Shown here piece by piece: positions 5,453 through 25,865 of a DNA stretch of 64,000 nucleotides (positions are counted from its first letter, which is position 1; the number at the start of each line of letters is the position of its first letter). Source of the DNA: Candidatus Aenigmatarchaeota archaeon. GTDB lineage: Archaea; Aenigmatarchaeota; Aenigmatarchaeia; GW2011-AR5; JACRAC01. The stretch lies in contig JACPJV010000039.1 in NCBI GenBank assembly GCA_016187395.1, positions 5,663 to 69,662 on the forward strand, given 5' to 3'. Made by a program: the position numbers and the translations under genes. The notes under the pieces were generated by a model. It worked only from the letters and a program-made list of their open reading frames with translations, was not told where the DNA came from and searched no databases.

Positions 5453-6859
5453 TCAAGAATTCAGCTTCATGAATTTTGTGTTTTTCAACAAAGTTTCGTA
5501 ACTATTTCCGGTCATAGAGCATATTTTCTGCAGGAAATCCCTGGCTATGCCTTCGAATTGCACAAATGCTTTTGAGCCTATAAGTTCTATGCCGTGCGCA
5601 ATTATCGAATTATCGCGAATACGCACGGATCCCAAAAATCGCTTCAGGTCGTCAAAGGATTTTCCTTTCCACAATTCGTCTTGAAGCAGGGATAAGATTA
5701 TGTGACCGTCTTTGATGCCTATCTCTGCAGGCACGATTCTCTCTGTTCCGTATAGTTTTTTCGTCAACTCACCATATTTTATCTCTATTTCTGCAATCTT
5801 GCTGTACATAGGCTGGGAGGTGGTGATTCCATGCGTGCTCAGCCTGTACTGGGAAATCAGTTCCAGAAGCCGGTATAACCTGGTAATGGAATCTTCCTGC
5901 CGGTTCACTTCCTTTCTCCGCAACGCATTAAGGTACATGTCGATGAGCAGGTGAACAACAAAATCTTCATTTTTCAGGTTCTCCTCAAATTTCTGCCCGG
6001 GCTTAAGATTCGCCAGAAATTTCAATACCGCAAGATTATTTGCTATTTGCGCATGCTCAAACCTGATTCCGTATTGCCTTAATTTTCCCATCAATTCCTC
6101 CAGCTTTTTTTCAGCAGCTATGTAATTGAATGCATCCCACTGATCGTAGCCTTCAGCAAGCAGCGCCTTAATTTCGAATATTCTGGGATCTGCCACTTTT
6201 TTGCACAGGTCTCTGAATAAAATCGCTGCGGAATTAAACGAATACGTGTTGAACAGATAGGTTGCATGGTTATTCTCAAGCTCGCCAAAAACTTCATACG
6301 GATTTCTTACCCTTACAAGGGTTTCTGTTCCAGGCAGCCCCCGTTTTATTTCATCGATCCATTCCTCGTCAATGTAGACTATATCAAAACCAAAAAACGA
6401 TGCCATTATTCCTGCGCTCGCGGACATTATGCGCTTGCCTCTTGTCAGGTCTACGGCAACGCGCTTGCCTTCAAACAGCGGAAACCTGTCCTTTATTTTT
6501 CCATAAATTTCCGCCAAATCCATTCCAGAATATTCTATATCATCAATTTCATAATCCTCTCTTTTCAGACTTGCTTTTTGAATGATAAAATCAAGAAAAT
6601 AATTTCTGAACTCCTTTGTGCAGATAAAATAAACTTTCTTAGGTTTTAGGGCATTTATGAGGAGAATATAGTATCTTTTTTCCAACCCAGCCGGGATTAT
6701 CAGCCAATCGTACCGCGACATGCCCATTTCAGAGACTTTTTTTATAAGGGTTTTTTCTGAAATTTCATGCATATTTTCCCAATAAAGGACTTCGGCTTCA
6801 TTAAAATGACCTTTAAGGACAAGTTCTTTCCATTTTTCCCGTAACTGCCCAAGTTCCAT
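5453..6859 (-). CDS. CARF-domain protein with C-terminal HEPN-like motif (Cas02710-like), orphan
   Basis: N-terminal Rossmann-like pattern (WLIIPAG...VYFICT...VAVDLTRGKRIMSASAG). The C-terminal RIRDNSIIAHG fits the R-x4-6-H HEPN signature. ATG start at 6859; the track start is TTG. Confidence 0.6.
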   Translation of the reverse strand: MELGQLREKWKELVLKGHFNEAEVLYWENMHEISEKTLIKKVSEMGMSRYDWLIIPAGLEKRYYILLINALKPKKVYFICTKEFRNYFLDFIIQKASLKREDYEIDDIEYSGMDLAEIYGKIKDRFPLFEGKRVAVDLTRGKRIMSASAGIMASFFGFDIVYIDEEWIDEIKRGLPGTETLVRVRNPYEVFGELENNHATYLFNTYSFNSAAILFRDLCKKVADPRIFEIKALLAEGYDQWDAFNYIAAEKKLEELMGKLRQYGIRFEHAQIANNLAVLKFLANLKPGQKFEENLKNEDFVVHLLIDMYLNALRRKEVNRQEDSITRLYRLLELISQYRLSTHGITTSQPMYSKIAEIEIKYGELTKKLYGTERIVPAEIGIKDGHIILSLLQDELWKGKSFDDLKRFLGSVRIRDNSIIAHGIELIGSKAFVQFEGIARDFLQKICSMTGNSYETLLKNTKFMKLNS

Positions 6860-6927
6860 GGAAAAGATGGTAAACAAATTGTTATAAACCTTGTTTCTCA
6901 ATTAAATGCATGCCTCCGTAGCTCAGT

Positions 6928-7057
6928 TCCAATCCCTTTCAGAAGGCGAATGGACGTTCCTGCAGGAACGTCAGTTTGCAAACGAAAGAAAGGTCTTGGA
7001 GAACCCCAAAGAAAGGGAACGTTGCTTCGCAACGATAATATGGGATTGGAGAGAAAT
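6928..7057 (+). other. tRNA intron 1 (D-loop, non-canonical position, about 130 nt)
   Basis: A 9-bp closing helix (6928-6936 with 7042-7050) is flanked by unpaired triplets and a 3-bp helix, which is a relaxed BHB-like arrangement. Contains a copy of hairpin element E. Confidence 0.6.
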
Positions 7058-7079
7058 CTGGTAGAGCGGCTGCCTTGTA

Positions 7080-7252
7080 TCCAAGTGAAGCCGCCGAGCA
7101 AGGAAATTTCAAGCGGAAAAATGAAAGGAGCGTTCTCAAGGACGTAAGGGAGAACGCTCAGATTGCTTCCGAAGAAATTTCGCAGCGAGGCGAGCTGAAT
7201 GCGGAAGGAGTGCAGCGCTGCTGTTATGAGCAGTGTGCTATGAAAACAAGAC
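7080..7252 (+). other. tRNA intron 2 (canonical 37/38 position, about 173 nt)
   Basis: Anticodon-side CTTGT (7074-7078) pairs with intron ACAAG (7246-7250). A 3-nt bulge ACA (7251-7253) lies next to the anticodon stem, as expected for the 3' splice-site bulge. Confidence 0.7.
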
Positions 7253-7460
7253 AGCAGCAGGTCGTGAGTTCGATTCTCACCGGAGGCTTTGAGCAGGGAG
7301 TGCAAAGCCCCACCGACAGAGGCAAGAGGTTCGGGGTTCAAAGGATGAGCGTGGCGCATGTTTATCGGACAGATGTCAGGTATGCCCAGGCAGTGGCGCT
7401 CCTCAGGCGCGACCCGGCGGTTTCGTCCCGCGACAAGCAGATGATTTGCTCCGTATTATT

Positions 7461-7733
7461 ACCCACGCCTAAAGGTGTGGGTTTCTCAGAGCACAAGCAA
7501 GAGCGAAGCTCTTGCGGTGCAGCATGAATCTCCGATTCATGCTTGCAAAGCATGTCGGAAGCCTTCTGTATCATACAAGCAGGAGCATATCTCCTGCTGT
7601 ACAGGAGGAACGTTGTTCCTCCTTGTATCCTCCGCTTACAAGCAAGAGCGAAGCTCTTGCTGTACAGGTGAACCTTTGGTTCACCATGTAAAAGCGGAGG
7701 ATTTATGTGGAGGCTTCCGCCTATAATCCACAG
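7461..7733. repeat. composite hairpin repeat cluster (family F1)
   Basis: At least seven consecutive perfect hairpins, for example CAAGCAGGAGC/CTCCTGCTG, AGGAGGAAC/GTTCCTCCT, GGTGAACC/GGTTCACC. An outer stem ATCCTCCGCTT/AAGCGGAGGAT encloses two of them. Confidence 0.8.
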
Positions 7734-7908
7734 CCTTTCCTCCCACCAACTATTTAGGCATTTTGGTAGCAGAGTGTTGCCTGATTCTAGACAGGCAGGC
7801 ATGGAAATGCTCTTATACCAAAGGGCATTTTGTAGAAATTCGCCATAAATCCTGAAAATACTACCCTTTTATACTTATCGCCGGGTTAGTTTGGAAAGGT
7901 GACAATGT

Positions 7909-10211: not shown

Positions 10212-13200
10212 ATGGGTCATAGACTTTTGCTTGCATTAGTAGTCTTAGTTATATTCAGCTCTGCTGTTTACGGATATTCAAGAGAGGAAATCAATGTGAC
10301 ATCCTGCAGAGGCGTCACCTGTACTGTTGCGAACTTTAACATCAACACAAGCGCAACAATAGGAGCTTCGCCAGGAAAAGGTGATACAGTTTATACAGGG
10401 TGGTCTAACACCACTTTTCCTTCAGAAGCAACTATCCAGAAGGTCAGATTCAGGTTCAGATATACAGGGCAAAATGGTCTGGACAATTTATGGGAATTTG
10501 ATTTTAGAACAGAGAAATATGTAACTTCTTACTGTACAAACACACTAGTGCAGTGCGACGCAGCCTGCGATGTGTACTACGAAGCTAATCTAACAGAGCC
10601 CGGTTCTGTGTGCGACTGGACAAAATCAAAACTTGATGATCTGAACATATCTGTATTAAATAATGATGCAGGAGGAGGCAAGACAGGCGATGTAACCTTC
10701 ATGGACATGGAGGTGCAGTACGTCGTGGCGCCGAACGTCTCTGATCCTGTGACTGCGGACCTGGACGGAGTTGTCAAGAAAGAATTTCGCAACAGCGAGG
10801 AGGTGAATATCACCGTGAACGTGAGCGACTTCGAGGGTTCCGGCGATATAAGCACGGTTCGAATCACAATCATAGATTCGGCAAATACCGCAAGGGTGAA
10901 TAACGCTTCAATGACTGCAGGCCCTTCCATTGAAAAGGGCTTCATATACAATTTTACATACAACCTGAGCTTTCAGGGGCCTTCAGGCGAATGGAGGGCG
11001 AACATCTATGCCAACGACACAAACGGTTTCAACGGCACGAATTCAACCAGGTTCAACGTCACGGTGGTGCCTTATGTTAATGTGACGTTCATAAGCCCGA
11101 CGCCGGTAAACAACAGCAACATGACAGAGCTGGATATTTTGTTCATAAACACAAGCGCTTTCGGGGAAGTGAACAACATAGACGTATGCCTGCTGGAGTT
11201 TGACAGCGTTAATGAATCTATGACTAAAAACGCCTCAGGCAGAAGCGCCTACTGCGATAAGGCAAAAAGATCGCTTTCATTGGGGCAGCATTCGTACAAG
11301 GTCTACGCAAACGACACGAACAACAACTGGAACGTGACGGAGACAAGGAACATATCTGTAAATCCGCTCCAGTTCATAGCGATGCTGAATATCTCGCAGC
11401 TTCCCAGCCAGATAGGATGGACGTGCCAGTCATGTGTTGCAGGCGGAAAATTCTACGAGAGGCTTGTCAGGGGATTTGATGCGACAAATATCATGAGAGG
11501 TGTGCTTTCTGTGAGCCACAACTTCACGCAGATAAGCATCAACACGAGCGCACTCGCAGCACTTGCCCGTGGAGGAGGAGTAACATCTGCAACAAGCGCT
11601 TCGCACAGCCATTTGCCCGGAAGCGCAAGCACTACACAAACTCAAAGCATTATGCCTATATCAAAGAGCGTTATAGTTGCTAACAGGACGTATGCCAATG
11701 ACCTGATCATCCCTTCAGGCACGCTGCTTTTATTCAATTCGACGTCAGCTGTGCCTTCAGAGAACTGGACGATTGTCAACGGCTGGAATGATTTTCATCT
11801 TATAGGCAATGCAACATTCGGGCAGGAGATAGGAAGCAGGGCGCATAACCACACCCTGGTTGCAAACGGCACTAATACTTCAATAGACGATGCAGGAAGC
11901 GTTATAGTCGTAATCACTTCAGGGTTAGTTGCACTGGATGGCCACGTCCACCCGTTCCCAGAGGATGTTACAAGCACTCCATCTGCCCAAAGCTCGGCAA
12001 ACTTCGTGACTGCGATATTGGCGCAGGCTACATCAAATACGAATATTCCGGAACGCGCATATGCACTGTTTGACGGAACGCCGCCGCAGGGCTGGAAGGT
12101 GCAGAGCAACCCAGACAGCTGGTTCTACAACCGCACTATAATTCCGAACGGAACGTTTGGCGTGACAGGCGGCGATGAGAGCGGGCACAATCACACATCA
12201 CAGATATTGATAACAGGAACGACCACAACGGTCGTGGGAGACATCTCAGCACTATCTGAACCAGCTTCAGATGCAACGCATAAGCATGAGATGAACGTTT
12301 CTTACACAGAGGAAAAAGCCACACCTGCCTCGACAACGGTTATAGTCGCGCAGCGCAACGCAAAGCCGCGGGTCACGCAGCCGCAGTTCAACATCACAAA
12401 CGCAAACTGGTATCTGACTGCGAACACAACGGCCACAGACGCAGACCTTGAACCCCTTGAAGTCTATATCAACTGGACGATAAACGGAATATTCAGGGTG
12501 CAGAACAACTATACAGGCATCCTGAACGGCACGGTTGTGAACGATACGCTAAATCGTCTCAACGCAAGCTACGGCGGCGTGACGTACAAACCCGGCGATA
12601 ATATCACGGTCATGGTCTGGACAGGCGACACGTACGAAAACAGCACAAGCGCGCCAAATAACAGCATCATAGTGGATAATATCCCTCCCGCTATAACATA
12701 TCAATCACCAACGCCTGCGGAAGGCACGAACACAACGGAAAACTGGACAGCAGTCAACGCGACAATAAGCGACAATCTCTACAACACATCTGCTTTTATT
12801 GATTTCAACAGCTCTTTGATTGGCTACTGGTCGTTTGAAAATTTCGATAATTTGAATATATTCGACAATTCTTCATACGGTCTTAACGCATTCTACGCAA
12901 CGCAGGCAAACGCAAGAAACATAACCACAGGCTATTACGGAAACGGATTCCTGATGAACAGGAGCGGTGCATGCACAAGCTGCGGTCTGAATGCGACCAA
13001 TGCCACGCCTTTCTACTTCCAGAATGGATTGACACTCGAAGCATGGGTTATTGTGCATGAGAACACAACGCTTATAAAATATATAGTTGGAAAAAGAACG
13101 GCTTGGGACTTGACATCAGACAGGACTAATGAAATACAATTTTCTATAACAAACCAGACAGCGACAAGAGATCTTTCTTCAAACGCTGGGATAGACGGCG

Positions 13201-16200
13201 ACGGGAAATGGCATCATATAGCTGGAACGTGGAACGGAACGACCATGCGAGTGTATCTTGACGGAAACATAAAAAACAGCGCAGCCTTTGGCGGTTTAAT
13301 CAACTTATCTGAATGGCGTGTTTTTCTGGGCGGAAGAGATGGCTCGAACACTGGGTCAAACCAGACTTCAGACGAGGTAAAAATCTGGAGCCGTGCATTA
13401 AGTGCAGAGGAAATCAACGCAAGCATGAATACAGCAAAAACAAGCGGCAGCGTTTACAGCAACTTCACAGAACTCAGCGACGGAGTGCGCGCTTACCGCG
13501 TCTATGCCATTGACCAGGTCGGCAACCTGAATATCAGCAGCCAGCGCAGAGTCACAACAGACACAACGCCGCCGCAGGGCACGTACGTAAGCCCGACGCC
13601 CACAGACGGGGAAAATTCTACAAATACCACGTACACGTTCAATGCCACGGTTGACGATGCGCTGCTGCCTATAAGCGCAGTTCTGTTTGAGCTTGACGGG
13701 ACCAATTATACAGCCGGCACAAACGGCACAGGGATAAGCATTTATGCCAATTTCACGGCGTCAAGCCTTTCTGTGGACGTGCATTATTACAAGTTCTGGC
13801 TTAATGACACATTAAACAACAAAAACCAGACTCCGAGAAGAAACGTGACCGTGCAGGCTGCCGGGGCTGTGACAGGCCTGCTCATCGCTTCTCTGCTCAA
13901 TACAACGTACAACCTCACGGTACCGCAGAACGAGACGTTCTACATCAATGTGACGGTAGGGTGCCAGGGCGCAGGAAATATAACGTGCGGCACTGTCAAC
14001 GCAACAGCGCGCTACAATTTCACGTCAGCCACGGTCCCGGACACAGCGATTGATGATAAATTCTGGAACCAGACGCTGTACATCGTGAACGTGACGATGC
14101 GGAAGATGAGGAATTTGACTAGGGTGGGGAATTTGACACTTGAGCCGACTGAAAGTCTCTCTGTAGTTCTTATGGATTCTTATGGCAGTTTCTTATACGT
14201 GGCCACTGCTTCATCACCAAGCCATCTGATAAAAATAAATCTTATTGATTTCAAAAGAGCTGGAAATATTACTATTGAAAAACCCGGATTAGGAGAATAT
14301 AGTTTTCGTTCAGGAGTAATAGATACCAACAATGGCTTTCTATATCTAGGATCGCGTAATTCACAATCTCCTTCTGGAGAAATAATCAAGGTAAGACTTT
14401 CTGATCTAAAAGTAGTAGGAAACATTACTTTGAACCCCGGAGAACAAAATTTATCGTCGGCTGTTATAGATACAGAAAATGGTTTTGCGTACTTTGCGGC
14501 AACTGCACCACCAGGTATTATTGTAAAAATAAATCTTTTGAACTTTTCTAGAGTAGGTAATCTTACGCTCAATACCGGAGAGGATCAGATTATGACAGGC
14601 GTTATAGACATACAAAATCAATTTGCATATTTTGGAACTATAAGTTATGACGAGAGCAATACTGGAATCGTAAAGGTTAATCTATCTGATTTTACAAGAA
14701 TTGGAAATACGTCAGCGGCTCCTGGAGCTCCAGGATCATCTGTTATAGATGTCGATGCCGGATTTGCTTATTTTGGAACTGTACGAGGCGGTATTTTAAC
14801 TAACGATGTAATAAGAATAAATCTTTCTGACTTTAAGAGAGTCGGAAATGTTAGTATCGGTATAGGAGAATTGCAGTCAGCCGCTATAGATACAGTGAAT
14901 AAGATAGCATACTTTGCATGGGATGCGAATCCTTTAAATTTGACCAAGATAAACCTTTCAGATTTCACTTTGATTGGAAATGTTGAATTAAATGCAACGA
15001 AAATAGCATCATTAGGGATAAGCGATCCAAAAGCAGCTATTGATGTTTCCACTGGTTTTGCATATTTTGGCGCAGCAAACGATGATGTTACATTGGTAGT
15101 CAAAGTCAAAGTAGATCAAGTCCCGAAGCCGCGCAACGTGCTGGAGAGGGCTGGGAATTTGACGCTGGGCACAGGCGAGGACAACTTTACATATCAAGCA
15201 TCCGTAATTGATTCTGAGAAAGGAGTCGCATATTTCGGTACTGCTACCTCGCCTGCGAAAATAATAAAGGTTAATCTTTCTGACTTTAGGAAGATAGCAA
15301 CTATAACTTTGAATGCAGGCGAAAATAGTCTGCGCTCAGCTGCTATAGACGCCAAAAACGGTTTTGCATATTTTGGCACAGCCACAAATCCAGGTATTGT
15401 CGTCAAAATTAATCTTTCTGATTTTTCTAGGGTTGGAAATGTAACTTTGAATACGAATGAAGCCGATCTCAGATCCGCAGTTATAGATTCCGAGAAGAGA
15501 TTTGCTTATTTTGGCACCTTCACTCCACCGGCAATTATTGTGAAGATTAACCTCTCTGATTTCTCAAGATTAGGGAACTTAACCCTAAATACGGGCGAGG
15601 ATAACCTGACATCAGCTGTCATTGATACTGCAAGTGGTTTTGCTTACTTCGCTACACGGACAAATCCTGGCAAAATAATTAAGATTAACCTAACTGATTT
15701 CACTAGAGTAGGTTCAATTACACTGAATACAGGAGAGCGTACAATGGAATCGGGTGTAATTGATGTAACAAACGGCTTTGCTTATTTCGGTGGACTGTTC
15801 GGGAATGTTGTTAAGATAAATCTCTCAGATTTTACCAGAACAGATGGTATTGTGCTTCCAACAAGTATAGTATCCGGGGCGATTGATACACAAAACAATT
15901 TCATATATTTTGGGTCAGAAGACACTCCGGCTAATATAACAAGACTTAACTTATCAGATTTTGCCGGAAATATCACAATTAATTTAAATTCGAATGAAAA
16001 CTTTTCATATTCCGGATTTATAGATATAGAAAGAGGCTTTGCATATTTCGGTACGGATACTGCACCCGGAAGAATAATCAAAATCAACCTCCGCCAGCGG
16101 AACCCGGTGGATTGCGGCACGCTGTCGCAGGACGAGGGGGCGACGTGCCTGGTGAACTGGCTCGTAAGGGCACCTGGCCCGGTAGGCACGCAGCATTTTG

Positions 16201-16715
16201 TTGATGGGATGGCTAACTCATCGCTGGCAGGAGACAACCAGAGCGCAGATTTCCAGGTGAATATAACGGGAATTACGAAGTCAATCGCACTTGCTTTGTC
16301 GAATGCTCTCTCACGGCAGATACACTGGACAATTGATGTCTTACCTATATTCCAGCAGTTTGCTGATGGAAATAATGGAACAAATTCAACTGATTACAGG
16401 ATAAACGTATCAGCTACAGGCACTACTGTAGATGTCTATATACGCGCAAGCGGACCTCTCGCAACACCCGGAGGAACTGCCCTTATAGGACTTCCGAACG
16501 AAACGTTCAGCTACAACACGACCAATGTAAATGTTCCAAGCGCAAACAACCGTTCTCTAACCACAAGCTTTTCTGACAACAAGATAGGTGACAACCTGAT
16601 CAGTGGCTCTGGAATTTTCCTGAAATTCTTCTTGAACGTCAGCAGCGGTCAGGACGCAGGAACTTATAACAACACCGTCGAAATCAAGGCCGTGGAGGCT
16701 GGGCAGGCGCCTTAG
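10212..16715 (+). CDS. giant surface glycoprotein/adhesin (2167 aa): Ig-like domains, LamG-like lectin domain, 14 propeller-type repeats, C-terminal pilin-like domain
   Basis: Signal peptide and very many N-x-S/T sequons. The LamG/ConA-like block is GYYGNGF...LTLEAWV...GKWHHIAGTWNGTTMRVYLDGN...VFLGGR...DEVKIWSRALS. Long uninterrupted ORF. Confidence 0.9.
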   Translation: MGHRLLLALVVLVIFSSAVYGYSREEINVTSCRGVTCTVANFNINTSATIGASPGKGDTVYTGWSNTTFPSEATIQKVRFRFRYTGQNGLDNLWEFDFRTEKYVTSYCTNTLVQCDAACDVYYEANLTEPGSVCDWTKSKLDDLNISVLNNDAGGGKTGDVTFMDMEVQYVVAPNVSDPVTADLDGVVKKEFRNSEEVNITVNVSDFEGSGDISTVRITIIDSANTARVNNASMTAGPSIEKGFIYNFTYNLSFQGPSGEWRANIYANDTNGFNGTNSTRFNVTVVPYVNVTFISPTPVNNSNMTELDILFINTSAFGEVNNIDVCLLEFDSVNESMTKNASGRSAYCDKAKRSLSLGQHSYKVYANDTNNNWNVTETRNISVNPLQFIAMLNISQLPSQIGWTCQSCVAGGKFYERLVRGFDATNIMRGVLSVSHNFTQISINTSALAALARGGGVTSATSASHSHLPGSASTTQTQSIMPISKSVIVANRTYANDLIIPSGTLLLFNSTSAVPSENWTIVNGWNDFHLIGNATFGQEIGSRAHNHTLVANGTNTSIDDAGSVIVVITSGLVALDGHVHPFPEDVTSTPSAQSSANFVTAILAQATSNTNIPERAYALFDGTPPQGWKVQSNPDSWFYNRTIIPNGTFGVTGGDESGHNHTSQILITGTTTTVVGDISALSEPASDATHKHEMNVSYTEEKATPASTTVIVAQRNAKPRVTQPQFNITNANWYLTANTTATDADLEPLEVYINWTINGIFRVQNNYTGILNGTVVNDTLNRLNASYGGVTYKPGDNITVMVWTGDTYENSTSAPNNSIIVDNIPPAITYQSPTPAEGTNTTENWTAVNATISDNLYNTSAFIDFNSSLIGYWSFENFDNLNIFDNSSYGLNAFYATQANARNITTGYYGNGFLMNRSGACTSCGLNATNATPFYFQNGLTLEAWVIVHENTTLIKYIVGKRTAWDLTSDRTNEIQFSITNQTATRDLSSNAGIDGDGKWHHIAGTWNGTTMRVYLDGNIKNSAAFGGLINLSEWRVFLGGRDGSNTGSNQTSDEVKIWSRALSAEEINASMNTAKTSGSVYSNFTELSDGVRAYRVYAIDQVGNLNISSQRRVTTDTTPPQGTYVSPTPTDGENSTNTTYTFNATVDDALLPISAVLFELDGTNYTAGTNGTGISIYANFTASSLSVDVHYYKFWLNDTLNNKNQTPRRNVTVQAAGAVTGLLIASLLNTTYNLTVPQNETFYINVTVGCQGAGNITCGTVNATARYNFTSATVPDTAIDDKFWNQTLYIVNVTMRKMRNLTRVGNLTLEPTESLSVVLMDSYGSFLYVATASSPSHLIKINLIDFKRAGNITIEKPGLGEYSFRSGVIDTNNGFLYLGSRNSQSPSGEIIKVRLSDLKVVGNITLNPGEQNLSSAVIDTENGFAYFAATAPPGIIVKINLLNFSRVGNLTLNTGEDQIMTGVIDIQNQFAYFGTISYDESNTGIVKVNLSDFTRIGNTSAAPGAPGSSVIDVDAGFAYFGTVRGGILTNDVIRINLSDFKRVGNVSIGIGELQSAAIDTVNKIAYFAWDANPLNLTKINLSDFTLIGNVELNATKIASLGISDPKAAIDVSTGFAYFGAANDDVTLVVKVKVDQVPKPRNVLERAGNLTLGTGEDNFTYQASVIDSEKGVAYFGTATSPAKIIKVNLSDFRKIATITLNAGENSLRSAAIDAKNGFAYFGTATNPGIVVKINLSDFSRVGNVTLNTNEADLRSAVIDSEKRFAYFGTFTPPAIIVKINLSDFSRLGNLTLNTGEDNLTSAVIDTASGFAYFATRTNPGKIIKINLTDFTRVGSITLNTGERTMESGVIDVTNGFAYFGGLFGNVVKINLSDFTRTDGIVLPTSIVSGAIDTQNNFIYFGSEDTPANITRLNLSDFAGNITINLNSNENFSYSGFIDIERGFAYFGTDTAPGRIIKINLRQRNPVDCGTLSQDEGATCLVNWLVRAPGPVGTQHFVDGMANSSLAGDNQSADFQVNITGITKSIALALSNALSRQIHWTIDVLPIFQQFADGNNGTNSTDYRINVSATGTTVDVYIRASGPLATPGGTALIGLPNETFSYNTTNVNVPSANNRSLTTSFSDNKIGDNLISGSGIFLKFFLNVSSGQDAGTYNNTVEIKAVEAGQAP
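14106..16092 (+). repeat. 14 tandem about-42-47-aa coding repeats arranged 7+7
   Basis: The recurrent unit is (I/V)NLSDF-R(V/I/L)GN-TLN-GE--L-SAVID---GFAYFGT---PG-I(V/I)KI. A non-repeat linker (VKVDQVPKPRNVLE) lies near 15110-15160. Confidence 0.8.
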
Positions 16716-18140: not shown

Positions 18141-18914
18141 ATGAATTCAGAAGAGATGTCCAAGCTTCAGATGAGCCGAAGCCAGGGAGCGGCAATGATT
18201 CTTTCGCGACAACTAGCAAGCCAGATTGCTCGCGATATTTCGCGGATTGCCGATGACTACAGGCGTGGCGCAACCGGAGAAGAGATAGTAAAAAAACACC
18301 GCATAGATATAAGATATTGCAAGGGATCGGAAAGCATCGCGCTGTCTTCTGTCTATTTCGCGCTTGCAGAGCTTATGCCGGAAGGCGAGAGGCACAGGCT
18401 TGCATACGAACATACGGTTGATGCAGCCATGCCTGTTATCAGAAAACAGCAAGACGACGGCACAGGCATATACGGATTTACAAGCAAGCAGCATTCTGAG
18501 GCAGGAAGAAAAGGCGGCTCAAAATCAGGAAGAATAGTATACGAGCAAAAGCTCGGCATACACGGTCTTTCTCATGAGGAGAGATCTAAGATAGGAAAAA
18601 AAGCTGGGAAAATCGGAGGGAGTTCTGCGCGAAGAATGAGAAAGGGCATTCATTCTCTGACGCCTGAACAAAGAAGAGAAATTTCCAGGAAAGCTGTCGC
18701 TGCCCGCGGTTATGCGCCATTTTCCGATGAGGAAAAGACTTATTTTCTGGAGTTATGTGCGGATCCGGAATTTCAGTACGGGTCAGGACCAAACAAGGGA
18801 AGGCCTGAACATCCCCGGATAGCAAAAGGACTTGAGCAAAGGTTCGGTATAGACCGGTCAGGCTCTGACCTGGCTTCTATGAAGTGCAGACTTGAAAGGA
18901 GGAAAGGTGCTTAG
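18141..18914 (+). CDS. hypothetical DNA-binding-like protein with three NUMOD3-like repeats
   Basis: Repeats GIYGFTSKQHSEAGRKGGSKSG, GIHGLSHEERSKIGKKAGKIGG and GIHSLTPEQRREISRKAVAARG resemble the NUMOD3 motif of homing-endonuclease DNA-binding modules. No nuclease motif was seen. Confidence 0.45.
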   Translation: MNSEEMSKLQMSRSQGAAMILSRQLASQIARDISRIADDYRRGATGEEIVKKHRIDIRYCKGSESIALSSVYFALAELMPEGERHRLAYEHTVDAAMPVIRKQQDDGTGIYGFTSKQHSEAGRKGGSKSGRIVYEQKLGIHGLSHEERSKIGKKAGKIGGSSARRMRKGIHSLTPEQRREISRKAVAARGYAPFSDEEKTYFLELCADPEFQYGSGPNKGRPEHPRIAKGLEQRFGIDRSGSDLASMKCRLERRKGA

Positions 18915-18916
18915 AA

Positions 18917-18983
18917 ATGTACAACAAACAGCCTGCACTTTACTCCATCCGCGGCATCAACTGCAGCGGGGAGGGGCTGTGAA
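18917..18983 (+). repeat. junction repeat J (diverged copy)
   Basis: Reads in frame as ...QPALYSIRGINCSGEGL*, compared with ...ELVLYSIRGRNRNGEGR* in other copies. Ends directly against the stop of the ATPase gene at 18984. Confidence 0.7.
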
Positions 18984-20402
18984 TTATCGCTTCATGGCTT
19001 TCTCGATGTCTTTCAGGTCAAAGCAATATGCTTTCTTCCCTTCGACTTTTGTTATTCTCTTTCTGAATGACTTTGCAAAAACAGCATAGATTTCTTTTCT
19101 CCTGTCGTTGTGCCATTTCACGAGCTTGGCTTTCTCAATGAGGTTTGCGGCAATTTTTCCCGCATCTACGTTATCCTTCCACTTGCATTCGCAGAACAAG
19201 ATTTTCATCTTGTTTTCATCAAGCGCTACTATGTCTATTTCCCTGTCCTTGTGCCACCATCTGCCGATTTTTTCAAAGCCGAAGCCTGCCAGAACAGCCT
19301 TTTCCCTTATCAGATGCTCGACCAGCCTTTCGAACATAAACCCGGAATAATTCTGGAAATCCTTTTTGATTGCAGACAGGATTTCCCCCTCCCTGTACGC
19401 CTCCAGTTCTATCTTGTTCGGATAAACGTACCTGAACCAGAAATTGAAATAAGGATCGACAAGAAAATACAACCTCCTTCGGAATTTCGGCGAAGCAGTG
19501 ACAGGAATTTCCTCTCTTATTATTCCAATGTTTTTGAGCGTTTCGAGATACTTTGACACCATGCCTTTGTCCAATCCGGTATAATTGCATATTTCTGCTG
19601 ACGTTGTTTTTCCAAGCGCAATAGCCTTGAAAATGAGAACATAATTTTTGGGTTCTCTAAATTCATCTTTCAGCAGGAATTCCGCTTCCCTGTAAAGATA
19701 GCAGCCTTTTCTTATGAAATTTTTCCTTATATTCTGCCAGAATCCCAGCTTTGGATCGAATTTCAGGATGTATTCCGGTATCCCGCCGATAACGAACCAT
19801 ATTCTTGCCAGTTCTTCCATGCTGCAATGCGGGAAAAATTTTCTCATGCGAGCAAATAACAGCGGCTGAAGCTCCCATTGACCTGTTCTTCTGCCGTACA
19901 GGGGACTCCCATAACCGAGAACCTTTTCTTCCATCACGCTGACCGACGAGCCTGAAAGTATCAGCATAACGTTTTTGTTCTTCAGTATAAGCTCCCATAT
20001 TCTCTGAAATATCGAAGGGATTGATGGGTTGCTGTGTATCAGAAAAGGAAATTCGTCAATGGCAACAATTACTTTTGTTTTCCTTGCCAGTTCTGCAAAT
20101 GCTATATTTTTTGCCAAAGAGTCGAATAGAAAAAACCAGTCTCCGAATTCAGCTCTTGAAAAATTCTCATCATCGATAAGCTCGGACGCTTTTCTCTTGA
20201 AATTAGCTAAGTTTTCCTTATCGCCTTCTGAAGAGGCAAGAAAGTAAAGCCCTTTCCTTCCCCTGAGGAACTCCAGAATAAGCTCCGTTTTTCCCACGCG
20301 CCTTCGGCCATAAATCACAACAAGTTCTGACTTGCCGGATGAATGCATTCGTTTTAGAAATGCAAGCTCCTTCTCTCTGTTCACAAATTTTGGTTGAGTC
20401 AT
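18984..20402 (-). CDS. archaeal AAA+ ATPase with C-terminal DUF234/PD-(D/E)xK-like domain
   Basis: Walker A GRRRVGKT and Walker B IVAIDEF. The C-terminal IGRWWHKDREIDIVALD...ILFCECKW forms a D...ExK nuclease-like motif. Confidence 0.85.
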   Translation of the reverse strand: MTQPKFVNREKELAFLKRMHSSGKSELVVIYGRRRVGKTELILEFLRGRKGLYFLASSEGDKENLANFKRKASELIDDENFSRAEFGDWFFLFDSLAKNIAFAELARKTKVIVAIDEFPFLIHSNPSIPSIFQRIWELILKNKNVMLILSGSSVSVMEEKVLGYGSPLYGRRTGQWELQPLLFARMRKFFPHCSMEELARIWFVIGGIPEYILKFDPKLGFWQNIRKNFIRKGCYLYREAEFLLKDEFREPKNYVLIFKAIALGKTTSAEICNYTGLDKGMVSKYLETLKNIGIIREEIPVTASPKFRRRLYFLVDPYFNFWFRYVYPNKIELEAYREGEILSAIKKDFQNYSGFMFERLVEHLIREKAVLAGFGFEKIGRWWHKDREIDIVALDENKMKILFCECKWKDNVDAGKIAANLIEKAKLVKWHNDRRKEIYAVFAKSFRKRITKVEGKKAYCFDLKDIEKAMKR

Positions 20403-20425
20403 AAGTAGTATACTTTACTATCAAC

Positions 20426-20433
20426 TATTTAAA
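20426..20433 (-). promoter_or_regulatory. TATA box (TTTAAATA on minus strand)
   Basis: Lies 24 nt upstream of the ATG at 20402. The same CTTTAAATA box with the same spacing is found upstream of the 27351 and 25691 genes. Confidence 0.5.
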
Positions 20434-20437
20434 GCTT

Positions 20438-20452
20438 GGGAGGGGCGGTGAG
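20438..20452 (+). repeat. junction repeat J (terminal 15 nt only, GGGAGGGGCGGTGAG)
   Basis: Identical to the ends of the J copies at 25021-25035 and 28966-28980. Confidence 0.6.
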
Positions 20453-20454
20453 AT

Positions 20455-20475
20455 TGGGCAGGCGCCTTAGGAAAC
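20455..20475. repeat. 21-bp direct repeat, right copy
   Basis: Exact match to 16700-16720. Confidence 0.9.
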
Positions 20476-20516
20476 CTTTAAAACTTATCGGCTTCTAACT
20501 AATTAGGTTCGATTTC

Positions 20517-22139
20517 ATGACTCGCAAATTCCGCCACCTGGTGGGAACTGCTGCCTTGGGACTTGGCGCTCTTTTGTTCAGCACGGGCGCTGCTTCTGCA
20601 GAGGAACTGAAACAGGAAACAGGCGTACCACAAAAAACTGATGGCAGAGAATTCGAGACAAAGGACAACCACTATGATTTTGGCTGCTTCAACGGGAATT
20701 ACAGGGCAGATCCTGGCGAGCTGCGAAGAGGCTGCAATCATGTTATAAATCCCGGAAAGCTGGTGCGTGTAGAGCCTTCTCTGCCTCCTTTCAGCGAGAT
20801 TTTTCAGCACGAATGGACTTGCACGGCGACTCCAAACGACGGCAGGGTTTCCGGGCCCTCTGCTTCAGATACGCTATCGCCGGATGGATTCATTGACGCC
20901 CGTGTTGACGGCGAAAACGTTTTATTTAAAATAGTTGATCCTGACGGCATATGGAGGTATGGCGCGGATTATGGCGGCGATGGATCCATGGATAAGATGG
21001 AATGGGCAGCTGGCGCGAATGTCGTAGAAGATTCATTTATTTTAACCCCGACCTTTTCCGGAAAACATCCAGTGAAGATAGTTTATTGGGACATGGGATA
21101 CAGATCTAAAGAAAAAAATCTTGTTGTTCAGGCAGGAAACGGCGAAGATGCTGATTTGGCATCATTCTTTTCCTGGATGGAAAGCCACGGATACTCTCCA
21201 GAGATTACCCATGTTTACAGAAAGCATCTGGACCATCCTTTAGTCAGAAAACAACTGTACAGAGATTTTGACATCCGCGAAGGAGGAGGAAATGAAACCG
21301 TGCAATCCTACAGACAGGGCGGGACATTCACGATGGTGCTTCACGACGTATTTCCTACTGATGATGGAGCTACGTCAACTTCCATGGAGGGCGATATTCC
21401 GGCATTGGAGAAAATAGCAGAGAGGATTTTTGGAAGAGATTTCTCCTTTGAATACAAGCCTGAGGACATATCATATTCAGATCTTATTGGGCAAGTCCTT
21501 GAAGACTGCGTTGTACTGGATGGAAATAGGGTAAGGGAAACCTTGAATGCGATGGTAGATGATAGAACTAAAGGCCATGTATTTCATCTTGCAGCTGAAA
21601 CCCTTGAATGGGGCATTCCGGTATGCAGCTTTACAGGCTCTTCACCAGCTTTTAGCACAGAGGAACTGGATGACGGAGAGGATTATGTTGGGGGACTTTA
21701 TTTGCATGAATGGGGGCACGACATTGAACTGCACCATCATCTGGTGAACCAAGCATATCCCTTTACAAACAGCTTCTACGGCACGGATGATATAATGGTT
21801 CATGATTATATCGGCTATGGAAACAGGGAAACAGGCAGGCTGGGAGATCCTTTGACGTTATACGCGCTCGAAACAGCAGACGGGTATTCTCCGGAAACGA
21901 CAGCCAGATACAATGAAGCCATGGAAAACAGCTGGATGCTGGAAGATGCTTACTATGGTATAACGAATCGCCCTCCAACAATGCCAAAGGTTTCTATAAA
22001 CGCTGATAATAGCAGCCAATGCATAACCTGCAATGCTTTCGGCAGCTTTGACAGAAATGGAGATCCAATAACTTACACATATACGTGGTCTATTGACGGT
22101 CAGCAGATGCCTTATACAGATAATCGAATTTGCTGGTGA
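20517..22139 (+). CDS. secreted HExxH metallopeptidase-like protein with C-terminal PKD-like segment
   Basis: Signal peptide (GTAALGLGALLFSTGAASA), the motif LYLHEWGHDIELHHH, and a C-terminal FDRNGDPITYTYTWSIDG pattern. Confidence 0.65.
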   Translation: MTRKFRHLVGTAALGLGALLFSTGAASAEELKQETGVPQKTDGREFETKDNHYDFGCFNGNYRADPGELRRGCNHVINPGKLVRVEPSLPPFSEIFQHEWTCTATPNDGRVSGPSASDTLSPDGFIDARVDGENVLFKIVDPDGIWRYGADYGGDGSMDKMEWAAGANVVEDSFILTPTFSGKHPVKIVYWDMGYRSKEKNLVVQAGNGEDADLASFFSWMESHGYSPEITHVYRKHLDHPLVRKQLYRDFDIREGGGNETVQSYRQGGTFTMVLHDVFPTDDGATSTSMEGDIPALEKIAERIFGRDFSFEYKPEDISYSDLIGQVLEDCVVLDGNRVRETLNAMVDDRTKGHVFHLAAETLEWGIPVCSFTGSSPAFSTEELDDGEDYVGGLYLHEWGHDIELHHHLVNQAYPFTNSFYGTDDIMVHDYIGYGNRETGRLGDPLTLYALETADGYSPETTARYNEAMENSWMLEDAYYGITNRPPTMPKVSINADNSSQCITCNAFGSFDRNGDPITYTYTWSIDGQQMPYTDNRICW

Positions 22140-22195
22140 TGTCCTCCATATCCTTCGCTGGATAAAGCCAGCGGCTTCCCTGGGAGGACAGCATC

Positions 22196-22250
22196 GCAAA
22201 AGAAAGCCATATTATTCATCCTCTATCTAAAGATGGAGGCTTTCTTTTGC
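22196..22250. repeat. 13-bp-stem hairpin related to family F1 (possible bidirectional terminator)
   Basis: GCAAAAGAAAGCC...GGCTTTCTTTTGC followed by TTGTAATCAGG. The same TACAAGCAAAAGAAAGCC string occurs at 61725-61742. Lies between convergent genes. Confidence 0.5.
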
Positions 22251-22256
22251 TTGTAA

Positions 22257-23207
22257 TCAGGCAACTGAAAGTTCCCTGTAAATTTCCATATAGGGCTTTG
22301 AAATTCCTGGATCGTCAAATATTGCTTTCAATGAATCTACCAGCGTTTTTTCCAGTTTCATCCCGCTTTTTCTATTTTCAACTGCAAAATGAACCGCCTC
22401 CAAATCTTTTGCCAGCAACCCTGATACTTCTTCTTCGCTTAAACCCATGTCCATGCCGTCATAAATCTGGCTTGCGTCCCGGCGAGTTAAAATTATAATA
22501 CCTGAGCTTTGCGGCCTCAGCTGCACCACAGGCTTTCTTTTTCTGGCCCTTCCTGTTTCCCGGTTAAGTTTTGCAAAGAAATACCCGATTTTCTTTTCCG
22601 GCAGCCCTGTGAAATGAGAGACATCAGCAGGGCTAAGATCAGTCTGGTAAGCCCGCCTCAACATCCTTCGGGCATCATCAGGCAGGCTTTCCCATCTCCA
22701 GCTCAGAATATCCTCTCCACCCTCTTTTAGGATAATATCCCTGACCGTGGCGTGGTATCCAATCCCTGATTTTCTGGAAAGGTCACGGAGGGTGGTTTTT
22801 GCCCCCCTTTCTCTGGTTATTCGAACTTCTCTAAATAATTTTATCAAATTCTCTACTGGAATGTAACCATTATGATCAGACGCCTTTTCAGGCCTCCCCT
22901 GATCATACTCAATCGCCTTTCCATATTCCCATCCTTCCCTTTCTGCCAGTTCATAAAGTCTGTTTCTAAGAAGATTCAGGATGCATCTTTGTTCTTCTTG
23001 CAATTCTTCACCAGCTTTTCTTCTATTTGAGAGGTAAGCGTTTCTTGCTTTTGAATATCTTTCCTGCTGGCCGGTTCGCCTTATATATTTCCATACCCCC
23101 TGTCTTGTTTTTGGCCCTTCACCTATCCTTTCACATTCTCTTGCAATACCTAGTGGGGAAAGGCTGCCTTGTCTTAGCAAAGAGTCTACGTGCCTGTAAT
23201 GTTCCAT
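22257..23207 (-). CDS. hypothetical protein with several HTH-like segments
   Basis: Start moved to ATG 23207, because the first 44 codons of the track ORF are the antisense reading of a J repeat. A TATA-like TATTTAT lies about 25 nt upstream. Confidence 0.5.
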   Translation of the reverse strand: MEHYRHVDSLLRQGSLSPLGIARECERIGEGPKTRQGVWKYIRRTGQQERYSKARNAYLSNRRKAGEELQEEQRCILNLLRNRLYELAEREGWEYGKAIEYDQGRPEKASDHNGYIPVENLIKLFREVRITRERGAKTTLRDLSRKSGIGYHATVRDIILKEGGEDILSWRWESLPDDARRMLRRAYQTDLSPADVSHFTGLPEKKIGYFFAKLNRETGRARKRKPVVQLRPQSSGIIILTRRDASQIYDGMDMGLSEEEVSGLLAKDLEAVHFAVENRKSGMKLEKTLVDSLKAIFDDPGISKPYMEIYRELSVA

Positions 23208-23243
23208 AAATGTATGTAACAATAAATGATAAATAGTTTTAAT

Positions 23244-23307
23244 GCCGCCGACGGCAACGAACTTGTGCTTTATTCTGTGAGAGGCAGAAACTGCAACGGG
23301 GAGGGGC
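23244..23307 (+). repeat. junction repeat J (3' 64 nt)
   Basis: Reads AADGNELVLYSVRGRNCNGEGP*. Differs from other copies mainly by synonymous changes. Confidence 0.8.
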
Positions 23308-23317
23308 CTTAGGCAAA

Positions 23318-24616: not shown

Positions 24617-24673
24617 AGGAAAATAAGTTTATCAAAGTATATAAGCTTATCGGTCATTTTCATGCCTTTTTGA

Positions 24674-25442: not shown

Positions 25443-25691
25443 TTATCTCATCTCTTTGTATCTTTTTGCCAGCGCCTTATTAACCTTTCTGCCGAGTTCA
25501 ATTGCGTCTTCTTCGGTCAGTTTGCTCTCTGCGAGAAGCCTATCCATCTTCTTTAAGAGAATGACCCTCTCCCGGATTGCCTGCCTAGCTACTTCTGACC
25601 AGTTTAGCTCAGGATGTCTGTCCATTTCTTCTTTCAGCTCTTCCGGTACAGACAGAGTTATGCTTACCACAAAATCACCTATCACGTTCAT
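25443..25691 (-). CDS. vapB: antitoxin partner of PIN toxin
   Basis: 82 aa, abuts the PIN gene. Shares SKLTEEDA-ELGRKVN---A-(R/K)Y with 60436-60699. TATA TTTAAATA lies 29 nt upstream. Confidence 0.75.
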   Translation of the reverse strand: MNVIGDFVVSITLSVPEELKEEMDRHPELNWSEVARQAIRERVILLKKMDRLLAESKLTEEDAIELGRKVNKALAKRYKEMR

Positions 25692-25859: not shown

Positions 25860-25865
25860 GCTGAT

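Follow-up and report, generated by a model that had tools for sequence, protein, structure and literature searches.

Introns at non-canonical positions of archaeal tRNA genes have been described as gained, and as 'transposed', at the DNA level (Fujishima et al. 2010, as summarised in PMC4090602; Sugahara et al. 2012, PMC3293823). Published models of their origin, which is still unsettled, invoke either DNA-level transposition of introns or the integration or recombination of mobile DNA (PMC4090602, PMC3293823). DPANN lineages are known for their disrupted tRNA genes (PMC5829648). The locus analysed here, in a 64-kb stretch of a DPANN genome (the window), resembles these cases, as they are outlined there, in that a non-canonical tRNA-Thr intron carries sequence also found elsewhere in the genome, beside mobilome-type genes; it is consistent with an intron gained or remodelled when genomic or mobile DNA was inserted or recombined, such DNA being tolerated because a BHB-like motif allows splicing. 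It departs from them, so far as these accounts describe them, in that the common sequence is a palindromic insert in orphan protein-gene fragments rather than a tRNA intron or a recombinase-bearing element, and in that the common part is interior and without BHB-forming ends, with no recombinase seen in the window.

The genomic sequence of the tRNA gene is missed by ARAGORN and by Rfam. Spliced in silico, 6912–7288 is called by ARAGORN as tRNA-Thr(tgt) with a perfect cloverleaf, and BHB-type motifs are present at both introns, as in archaeal intron-containing tRNA genes.

6912–7288, + strand: tRNA-Thr(UGU) gene with two introns; exons 6912–6926, 7057–7079 and 7253–7288
6927–7056, + strand: intron 1, 130 nt, interrupting the D-loop between positions 15 and 16, with a relaxed HBh' motif (BHB scan and folds)
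7080–7252, + strand: intron 2, 173 nt, at canonical position 37/38, with an hBHB motif, central helix CTTG/CAAG and outer helix GCTGC/GCAGC

Intron 2, whose helices pair at 4/4 and 5/5 bp, has no repeat relatives in the window and is the positive control that validates the BHB definition used. The splice motif of intron 1 combines a central helix GCUC/GAGA (3/4 bp) with an 8-bp inner helix, TCCAATCC/GGATTGGA. This terminal helix does not mark the ends of a repeated element, as TCCAATCCC has 14 matches in the window against 13.5 expected. In the interior of intron 1, at 6945–6979, lies the element that we call E, which consists of a left arm GGCGAATGGAC, a hairpin and a right arm GTCAGTYTGC; the splice sites, in the unrelated 8-bp helix, fall outside it. 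On this point the preliminary description needs correction. An 8-mer common to the right arm and the spliced exon 1–exon 2 junction, TCAGTCTG, is taken as coincidence because matches as long or longer arise in 10–12% of shuffles.

We find five copies of E in the window, all on the + strand: one within the D-loop intron (copy T) and four within repeats termed J (copies A to D, starting at 24973, 25759, 30150 and 61831).

6940–6984, + strand: copy T, in tRNA intron 1; J-like left flank CAGAA (6940–6944), left arm GGCGAATGGAC (6945–6955), palindromic core GTTCCTGCAGGAAC (6956–6969), right arm GTCAGTTTGC (6970–6979), then AAACG
7025–7034, + strand: apparently J-derived right flank CTTCGCAACG, 45 nt downstream of the copy T hairpin and identical to 25011–25020 at copy A
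24973–25012, + strand: copy A, a clean 40-nt insertion with a 9-bp stem, GACGTTTGC/GCAAACGTC
25759–25837, + strand: copy B, a nested 79-nt insertion within a J remnant (25730–25859); left arm, spacer, inner hairpin ending GTCATTTGC, second J-left segment CTCCGCTGCAGGAAT, right arm GTCAGTCTGC
30150–30208, + strand: copy C, 59 nt within a J remnant (30142–30230) between two convergent genes; left arm GGTGAATGGAC, 10-bp stem GACTGACGAG/CTCGTCAGTC with an AT-rich loop, right arm GTCAATCTGC
61831–61906, + strand: copy D, nested, within a degenerate J remnant (about 61820–61928); left arm, inner module GAATGGAC-ATTCCTGCAGGAAT-GTCGGTTTGC, CTTCGC, second J-left segment TGCAGGAAC, right arm TTCAGTTTGT

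The link between the tRNA intron and the J repeats, first pointed out in the preliminary description, is real. The left arm is exact at 6945, 24973, 25759 and 61831 and has one mismatch (GGTG...) at 30150; a sixth match, at 10986 within a large gene, is a chance one. Six matches compare with 1.0 expected, and no shuffle reaches six. BLAST of the tRNA intron against the window returns 61848–61879 (E = 7.5e-7, 29/32 identical) and 24967–25010 (E = 1e-5, 37/44), and the 10-mer CTTCGCAACG, which at 7025–7034 is part of a small hairpin, CGTTGC-TTC-GCAACG, is common to the intron and copy A. Copies B and D are sisters that have the upstream sequence TTGCGTTT in common. E is not an assembly artefact: a Logan assembly of SRR12113420, made independently, contains 24608–25557, and copy A with it, 100% identical; further Logan contigs recovered are short and all identical to the window. 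The organism occurs in three SRA runs, SRR12113420, SRR12113424 and SRR12113425. Within the window E is confined to J contexts and the intron. Outside it, the pattern GGCGAATGGACN{10,40}GTCAGTYTGC has 9 matches in genome contigs and 12 in metagenome contigs, all unrelated and mostly in high-GC bacterial contexts, while looser E and J-core patterns give 105 and 13 matches in viral contigs, all by chance. Relatives of E are thus absent from every genome, metagenome and viral collection searched, and the element looks lineage-specific.

The J repeats had been taken for cassette recombination junctions. We find instead that J is coding sequence, namely the 3' end of orphan fragments, truncated on the 5' side, that encode the C-terminal domain of a giant surface-protein family, and no recombinase is present among the roughly 40 window ORFs scanned.

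24674–25034, + strand: J25000, the orphan 3' fragment of greatest length; its annotation is a 110-aa hypothetical protein, and E shifts its frame
18917–18982, + strand: J18950, an E-free J end of 21 codons, ending LYSIRGINCSGEGL and stop
23226–23312, + strand: J23290, an E-free J end of 28 codons, ending LYSVRGRNCNGEGP and stop
27397–27540, + strand: J27520, an E-free J fragment
28818–28979, + strand: J28960, an E-free J fragment of 53 aa, with a TATA-like box 20–29 nt upstream of its ATG
20434–20449, + strand: a J reduced by internal deletion, CTTGG-GAGGGGCGGTGAG, directly after the TATA box of a DUF234 ATPase gene

The C-terminal peptide follows ...LYS[VI]RG[RI]N[CR][NS]GEGx before the stop, and substitutions among J copies fall 10/13/42 on the three codon positions, with the peak shifting in other frames; homology of J25000 extends upstream of its own ATG. 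A profile search of 1.84 billion representatives yields a single outside homolog of J, P0124 (E = 1.5e-12), which at its N-terminus matches the 46-aa repeats found in a 2167-aa protein of the window and whose gene ends ...CGCGGCAGGAACTGCAACGGAGAAGGGCCCTGA, without E; no further relatives of P0124 were found. Pfam is silent on the J domain, its structure prediction (mean pLDDT 32) is unusable, and our impression that it is fibronectin-III-like comes from motif resemblance only. ATPase and toxin-antitoxin genes stand between the fragments. Identity between two DUF234 ATPase paralogues is about 55% over 1100 nt and about 90% in the last 290 nt, adjoining J, a step that points to active recombination beside J ends. 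Among possible close relatives of the genome, the best P-type ATPase homolog is only 55% identical.

The J fragments recall orphan gene-end arrays such as polymorphic toxin C-terminal modules and serial-integration att fragments: they repeat the 3' end of one gene in direct orientation, are cut back to different extents on the 5' side, all finish at the stop codon, and alternate with accessory genes downstream of a giant surface-protein gene that belongs to their own family. They differ in being conserved at the extreme 3' end rather than in a 5' homology block, in pairing divergently with ATPase genes, and in having no integrase found in the window. An integron attC or cassette array was rejected by eye, CTGCAAC and GTTAGGG each failing the R''(RYYYAAC)/R'(GTTRRRY) consensus at 1–2 positions, and no tyrosine recombinase is present in the scanned ORFs. 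Template and variable repeats of a DGR were set aside as well (the J differences lie at third codon positions and involve all bases, and the roughly 40 ORFs hold no RT), as was a CRISPR-like reading.

Copies A, B and C occupy the same site, GGCAGRRA^E^YYGCARCNG, as clean insertions of 40, 79 and 59 nt, with the GGC codon 8 nt upstream and the end of the stop codon 22 nt downstream. The insertion is a pure one between GGCAGRRA and YYGCARCNG and does not replace GAACT as had been proposed; the net gain of 40 nt and the +1 frameshift assigned to copy A are correct. The site is the loop of J's own quasi-palindrome, GCAG-RAA-CTGC. The E apex in T and D and the second J-left segment in B and D consist of J codons (GCAGGAAY) and their own inverted complement, and copy T holds the J-derived GCAGGAAC...TGCAA(A)CG and TCGCAACG; the unit CAGGAAY-KTCRGTYTG recurs four times. 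E-free J is therefore the ancestral state, because the apex is an inverted duplicate of J codons, and E derives from J, since E-free J is conserved coding sequence and the only outside homolog lacks E. The resemblance of E-free J to a collapsed right arm (GCAGGAAC-TGCAAC against GCAGGAAC-GTCAGTT-TGCAAAC), pointed out earlier, is thus real, with the polarity reversed. The flanks of copy A are nearest to E-free J27520 and J28960 (83–87% identity) and its arms match B and T, incongruent relationships which imply that recombination added or removed E as a block. The J-derived flanks on the intron copy make J to intron the most likely direction of transfer, a step that rests on a common flank of 5 and 8–10 nt only.

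We therefore lean, by a little more than an even chance, towards E as a lineage-specific palindromic outgrowth of J that was spread by recombination and became a passenger in the tRNA intron, and that is not itself an intron. E would have arisen once, by inverted duplication at the J quasi-palindrome through template switching or snap-back repair, with turnover of the apex since and retention of the arms GGCGAATGGAC and GTCAGTYTGC. Its spread and loss among J paralogues would have proceeded by homologous recombination or gene conversion and not by transposition. One fragment of J with E (CAGAA-E-...-CTTCGCAACG) would then have been copied into the tRNA-Thr(UGU) gene, where it either helped to create the 130-nt D-loop intron or entered an existing one; there E would be a harmless passenger, the splicing endonuclease removing the intron via the relaxed HBh' formed by other intron sequence. 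Quasi-palindrome template switching and snap-back palindrome formation match E in several respects: J codons and an exact inverted copy of them meet at the apex (GTTCCTGC/GCAGGAAC), stems of differing sequence are nonetheless perfect, growth took place at a pre-existing GCAG-RAA-CTGC, and other local inverted duplications lie nearby, such as AAGCCTC...GAGGCTT at 61802–61826. They differ in that for E the process is deduced, and in that simple templated correction leaves the conserved imperfect outer arms unexplained. This history is drawn from five copies in one genome, which therefore offer no phylogenetic test of it.

A non-autonomous transposable hairpin of the MITE, PATE or REP kind, which a hairpin-recognising enzyme encoded elsewhere in the genome would have placed at a specific site in the J stem-loop and, on one occasion, in the tRNA intron, would account for the single insertion site and conserved termini in A, B and C, for an imperfect palindrome with conserved mismatches like those of IS200/IS605 and REP hairpins, and for presence or absence varying among closely related J copies. 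We nevertheless consider it improbable. The junctions (AAA/GGC...ACT/TCG, GGA/GGC...ATT/CTG and GGA/GGT...ATC/CTG) contain no direct repeat and hence no target-site duplication; the cores resemble one another in neither sequence nor length, so copy-and-paste did not produce them; and every copy, that in the intron included, carries J-derived flanks. Neither the window nor the collections searched hold dispersed near-identical copies in unrelated contexts, no copy lying outside a J context in the 64 kb, and no transposase, integrase or reverse transcriptase is present among the roughly 40 window ORFs scanned. Transposases or further E copies may be encoded elsewhere in the MAG, beyond the window. 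Compared with REP/BIME, MITE and PATE repeats generally, E is likewise a short imperfect palindrome with conserved arms and mismatches at gene 3' ends, in a nested or clustered arrangement with strand-biased folding, but it has only five copies, all tied to the host sequence J and with unrelated cores, no target duplications, and no RAYT or TnpA-type enzyme found in the window. A second hairpin family in the window, TACAAG...CTTGTA, is much more abundant than E and fits the REP analogy better.

Measured against dinucleotide shuffles, the hairpins of copies T (z = −4.6), B (−4.7) and C (−4.7) are real, and those of A (−2.4) and D (−1.8) are weaker. The earlier picture of an expandable, partly nested hairpin holds, given the 40-, 79- and 59-nt insertions and the nesting of B and D; its assertion that all are centred on CTGCAG applies to three of the five, copy A having CCGCAG and copy C an AT-rich loop. 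In a five-module hairpin alignment 92.9% of cells are paired and three upper-stem pairs are changed on both sides; one G-U pair is invariant (5/5 copies), and the arms conserve G-U and U-G pairs and a G-A mismatch. The left arm, of 11 nt, is identical in four copies despite diverged cores and J flanks. Four copies are more stable when folded from the + strand than from the − strand (T, −19.8 against −13.3 kcal/mol; B, −45.1 against −36.5; C, −27.7 against −24.2; D, −26.2 against −18.6), and the fifth, copy A, is equal on both. A K-turn or C/D-box reading of GGCGAAUGGAC was ruled out, as the arms form a continuous wobble-pair helix without C or D boxes. The TATA box upstream of copy B belongs to an antitoxin-PIN operon on the − strand, which rules it out as a promoter of an E RNA.

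The conserved left arm, the wobbles, the G-A mismatch and the + strand bias speak against a neutral scar and would be better explained by specific recognition of a sequence or structure, whether it is an RNA that is recognised or an enzyme that binds the hairpin. E might accordingly be a functional + strand RNA hairpin, whether a 3'-end stabiliser or terminator for convergent genes (REP/BIME-like), a protein-binding site, or a trans-acting element by which a stable or circular tRNA intron pairs with E in J transcripts. This possibility, which is compatible with the palindromic outgrowth proposed above, we regard as unlikely though well worth weighing. Beyond the strand bias, the invariant G-U pair and the two-sided changes in the upper stem, it gains from arms better conserved than the J flanks and from the position of A, B and C at the ends of convergent genes, and little of J beyond the hairpin part survives around B, C and D, a hint that the hairpin is under selection. 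On the other side, the wobble pairs are common by descent and not independent events, inverted duplication yields perfect stems without any selection, T-tracts do not consistently follow the hairpins, copy A has no strand preference, and there are five copies only. Rfam 15 covariance models give no match at gathering thresholds in the window, and E-value scans of 18800–30400 and 6800–7800 return nothing relevant.

It had also been suggested that the inserts are spliceable BHB-type introns or intron-derived mobile elements, so that the tRNA splicing endonuclease would excise E from J and restore the frame. BHB introns of archaeal protein-coding genes (cbf5; PMC2738675) are the obvious precedent; like them, E is a short coding insert whose removal restores a conserved frame, and unlike them it has no convincing hBHBh' or HBh' motif at the frame-restoring boundaries and resides in orphan fragments. 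We scanned with strict and relaxed BHB definitions around the tRNA gene and at every offset within ±12 nt of E in A, B and C. With E taken out exactly, A and B again read ...G R N/D R/C N/S G E G R followed by the stop codon; a 4-bp GCAG/CUGC helix with three unpaired nt on each strand and correct polarity occurs at d = −1 in A, B and C; the organism evidently splices a relaxed motif in tRNA intron 1; and forcing a BHB-like fold costs 5.8–15 kcal/mol against 6–8.5 for the genuine tRNA introns. This forcing does not discriminate, however, and the helix is J's own pre-existing stem, the only one to appear in the scan. Its flanking helices are 1–2 bp (inner, 1 bp before mismatches; outer, 2 bp, G-U and G-C, before a 2x2 loop), too short for the second helix of several base pairs that the motif requires; about 40% of such scans would contain a 4/4 helix by chance at one offset or another, and the minimum-free-energy folds of E in J do not form the motif. 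Excision at d = −1 swaps a conserved Asn codon for Ile, Val or Ala and so does not yield the conserved product; the register that brings back Asn or Asp, d = 0, lacks a BHB. The J copies are orphan and 5'-truncated, and B, C and D have no usable upstream ORF, so there is nothing for splicing to rescue; in the tRNA, E lies away from the splice sites and takes no part in their motif. Splicing of E as a BHB-type or bulge-helix-loop (BHL-type) intron is therefore very doubtful.

Equally far-fetched, in our estimate, is a variant in which E would be a relaxed bulge-helix-loop substrate on GCAG/CUGC, cut from J transcripts by a broad-specificity DPANN endonuclease with the same module in the tRNA-Thr intron, or in which the circularised tRNA intron would act in trans on E-bearing J transcripts by arm-to-arm pairing. 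Excision would be expected to join GGCAGAAA to TCGCAACGG, or GGCAGAA to TTCGCAACGG. If the relaxed-substrate reading were true, protein-coding sequence and a tRNA intron would have in common a family of endonuclease-dependent inserts.

Bypass elements (T4 gene 60 and the mitochondrial 'byps') are likewise hairpin-forming inserts, here of 40–80 nt, that interrupt coding sequence. Copy A differs from them in having no matched take-off and landing codons at any 40-nt offset (40-nt gaps after GGC, AGA and AAG end in TCT, GCA and CTT) and no stop codon after the would-be take-off site, and translational bypass was rejected for it.

These results set right an appealing interpretation, that of mobile BHB introns in coding genes, which lacks support, and they make part of a D-loop intron traceable to a probable donor in its own genome, a palindromic outgrowth in orphan surface-protein fragments, with the polarity set by the E-free outside homolog. 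They suggest a DPANN genome that generates palindromes actively at gene ends. If the palindromic outgrowth of J is the true origin of E, this tRNA gene would be a concrete case in which captured genomic repeat DNA built or enlarged an intron and is tolerated because unrelated ends supply the splice motif.

A tRNA-Thr(UGU) gene with two introns escapes the ARAGORN and Rfam scans of the genomic window, which detect no tRNA; with both introns deleted in silico, ARAGORN calls a tRNA-Thr(tgt) whose stems are fully paired.

6912-7288, + strand: tRNA-Thr(UGU) gene with two introns, recognised by eye and called by ARAGORN only after in-silico splicing
6927-7056, + strand: intron 1, 130 nt, D-loop position 15/16, relaxed HBh' motif
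7080-7252, + strand: intron 2, 173 nt, position 37/38, CTTG/CAAG central helix and GCTGC/GCAGC outer helix

We defined the archaeal bulge-helix-bulge (BHB) splice motif as a 4-bp central helix with a 3-nt bulge 3' of the helix on each strand, cut after the second bulge nucleotide, and validated this definition on intron 2, which is canonical. Intron 1 has a GCUC/GAGA central helix (3/4 bp) and an 8-bp inner helix (TCCAATCC/GGATTGGA), and the BHB scan finds no outer helix; multiple and non-canonical tRNA introns are expected in DPANN lineages (PMC5829648). A Csm6-like CARF/HEPN gene (Pfam Cas_Cas02710, Csm6_6H; 5453-6859, − strand) lies divergently ~50 nt from the tRNA gene, and the window's main repeat families include no CRISPR array.

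Well inside intron 1, at 6945-6979, and taking no part in its splice motif, is copy T of a hairpin element, E (left arm, palindromic apex, GTCAGTYTGC), whose other copies (A to D, starting at 24973, 25759, 30150 and 61831) lie in the repeated sequence J. The preliminary description had the intron and J share this hairpin, and the sharing is well founded: GGCGAATGGAC, with at most one mismatch, occurs six times in the window against 1.0 expected, five of the six matches being followed by a hairpin and then GTCAGTYTGC or a near variant, and BLAST of the intron against the window returns 61848-61879 (E = 7.5e-7) and 24967-25010 (E = 1e-5). Intron 1 (7025-7034) and copy A (25011-25020) also have CTTCGCAACG in common, and neither intron 2 nor the remainder of intron 1, outside its E- and J-like parts, has relatives within the window.

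Folding and alignment of the five copies bear the hairpin out, with z-scores of −4.6 (T), −2.4 (A), −4.7 (B), −4.7 (C) and −1.8 (D), 92.9% of aligned cells paired, three upper-stem pairs altered on both sides and an arm G-U pair in every module. Four copies share an identical left arm despite diverged cores and flanks, the arms keep their imperfections, folding favours the + over the − strand in four of five copies, and remnants B, C and D retain hardly anything but the hairpin. Such traits would suit a role at the RNA level or recognition by a hairpin-binding protein, but they are not independent evidence, coming from five related copies in one genome. E and the J core have no copies in the genome, metagenome and viral collections searched, and Rfam gives no match. 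A near-identical stretch on two contigs of one Legionella MAG (L005 4641-4678; L010 6517-6554) matches the E search pattern by chance; these are apparently paralogues of each other with no relation to E. Two window stretches recur at 100% identity in Logan assemblies of SRR12113420 and SRR12113424, and the closest homolog of the window's conserved P-type ATPase is only 55% identical, so there is no genome of a close relative to compare.

Judged from its sequence, J is coding on the + strand and not the cassette junction it had been taken for. Three long copies differ at 10, 13 and 42 first, second and third codon positions, with Leu TTA/CTG/CTT and Arg AGG/CGC switches among the differences, and in all copies an in-frame stop directly follows ...LYS[VI]RG[RI]N[CR][NS]GEGx. 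Matches to the J peptides are the hypothetical proteins HYW25_05930, HYW25_05950 and HYW25_05960, encoded on a 71,345-bp contig of a Candidatus Aenigmarchaeota (DPANN) MAG, and a word-based homolog search finds nothing outside this contig. A profile search of 1.84 billion representatives yields one outside homolog, P0124 (E = 1.5e-12), whose N-terminus matches many times the 46-aa AVIDxxxGFAYFGT repeats of the window's 2167-aa surface protein (10212-16715) and whose C-terminus is a J domain ending YRIRGRNCNGEGP*; its gene, on a 532-bp ENA contig, reads CGCGGCAGGAACTGCAACGGAGAAGGGCCCTGA and lacks E. Homology to P0124 of J25000, the J copy that hosts E copy A, extends upstream of its annotated ATG (CLEVCPCDVLPGEM versus CMEVCPCGSVMPNEV), back to a stop at 24671. 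Together with the coding pattern and the P0124 match, this indicates that the J copies are orphan fragments from the 3' ends of genes in a giant surface-protein family. Truncated to varying degrees at the 5' end, they keep from 21 codons up to ~107 codons not counting E (24674-25034), and one copy is internally deleted:

20434-20449: J copy with an internal deletion

The copies lie downstream of such a giant gene, with genes for DUF234 and AAA_14/DUF4143 ATPases, a PIN-antitoxin pair and a nucleotidyltransferase pair set between them, and a scan of ~40 window ORFs finds no integrase, transposase or reverse transcriptase. J direct-repeat ends number nine, eight in 18917-30230 (+) and one at 61820-61928, most of them divergent from an adjoining DUF234 or AAA_14/DUF4143 ATPase gene; the array may have arisen by serial integration, Campbell-type recombination or gene-targeted insertion. 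Four tandem paralogous genes of ~230 aa each, lacking a Pfam match (30692-33521, +), share a C-terminal motif, NVSGGQAAGDYNTT..., that resembles the C-terminus of the 2167-aa protein. An 82-aa antitoxin-like ORF (25443-25691, −) lies upstream of the PIN gene (25035-25442, −); the TATA box at 25722-25729 is placed as expected for leaderless transcription of this operon rather than for an RNA beginning at E copy B. Two further repeat families occur in the window:

1838-2008, 7492-7693, 33539-33667, 36698-36754, both orientations in family: TACARG...CTKGTA hairpins (families D10, D11, D14, D18)
40893-40979, 42579-42606, 46681-46737, 62015-62189, both orientations in family: TACARG...CTKGTA hairpins (same families)
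2028-2060, 25932-25964, 29048-29080, 41011-41043, 46753-46785, + strand: 33-nt repeat ending TGTGGTTTCACTATA (family D19)
~61940-61975, − strand: the same 33-nt repeat

The abundant hairpins are tandem TACARG-N7-(GAAG/TTCG/TTTG)-N7'-CTKGTA units, mostly just downstream of genes, with variable but compensated upper stems, and look REP-like; the 33-nt repeat often sits beside TACAAG hairpins or J ends.

Within J, copies A, B and C of E are clean insertions (40, 79 and 59 nt) at one site, between GGCAGRRA and YYGCARCNG, 8 nt after the GGC codon and 22 nt short of where the stop codon ends, in the loop of a small quasi-palindrome belonging to J itself, GCAG-RAA-CTGC. The two outer arms of E (GGYGAATGGAC, GTCARTYTGC) form a stem that includes two wobble pairs and one G-A mismatch and closes with GAC/GTC beneath a variable apex. 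Copies T and D have an apex of the type GTTCCTGC|GCAGGAAC, J codons GGC AGG AAC joined to an exact inverted complement of themselves; CAGGAAY-KTCRGTYTG, a unit made of J-left and the right arm, occurs four times; and B and D hold a second J-left segment within E (CTCCGCTGCAGGAAT and CTTCGCTGCAGGAAC). The proposal that the hairpin is expandable holds. The resemblance drawn earlier between insert-free J (GCAGGAAC-TGCAAC) and the right arm (GCAGGAAC-GTCAGTT-TGCAAAC) holds too, but its polarity, J as a collapsed element, is reversed: the right side of E is J plus insert, and J is conserved and ancestral. A perfect 17-bp inverted repeat (ATATAGCAAACCAACTT/AAGTTGGTTTGCTATAT, 25867-25883/25901-25917) lies between J remnant B and a DUF234 gene stop, and a local inverted duplication, AAGCCTC...GAGGCTT (61802-61826), just left of copy D.

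That E is itself a BHB-type intron excised from J transcripts, or intron-derived, had been raised in the preliminary description, and exact deletion of E does bring back the conserved peptide and stop codon. The search at the insert boundaries finds only GCAG/CUGC with three unpaired nucleotides per strand, which has the correct BHB polarity; however, this helix is J's own pre-existing stem, its flanking helices are only 1-2 bp, its register (d = −1) turns a conserved Asn codon into Ile, Val or Ala, and the register that keeps Asn (d = 0) has no BHB motif. A chance 4/4 helix at some offset is not unusual. Forcing the BHB-like fold costs 5.8-15 kcal/mol for E in J versus 6-8.5 kcal/mol for the real tRNA introns, so energy does not settle the matter. 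The J copies are orphan fragments, and B, C and D have no usable upstream ORF, so splicing would rescue nothing; we regard E as an intron, or as intron-derived, as very improbable. Readings as a translational bypass element, attC site, DGR, K-turn or C/D box were rejected for want of the features that define them.

The J flanks of copy A are closest to E-free J27520 and J28960 (83-87% identity) and its arms are those of B and T, so J paralogues have acquired or dropped E as one unit. Next to J ends, a pair of paralogous DUF234 ATPase genes shares ~90% identity across the final 290 nt (18985-19272 and 25961-26248, −) against ~55% across 1100 nt; the 290 nt are a gene-conversion tract, and gene conversion is demonstrably at work here. 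The promoters of both carry CAACTATTTAAAG...CTTGG. Copy-and-paste transposition of E is disfavoured, as cores are unrelated, target duplications are absent and every copy lies within J sequence.

Copy T brings J-derived sequence with it, CAGAA on the left and GCAGGAAC...TGCAA(A)CG within E, and TCGCAACG, 45 nt downstream, is identical to copy A. A J+E fragment would thus have been copied into the tRNA gene or into its intron, J-to-intron transfer being the simplest reading because J is conserved coding sequence and E-free in its outside homolog. Such a capture fits DNA-level models of intron gain in archaeal tRNA genes (PMC3293823; PMC4090602, citing Fujishima 2010). We somewhat favour E as a palindromic, lineage-specific outgrowth of orphan gene ends that recombination spread and that a non-canonical tRNA intron took up as a passenger; the donor of one part of an archaeal tRNA intron could then be traced, in a lineage without sequenced close relatives.
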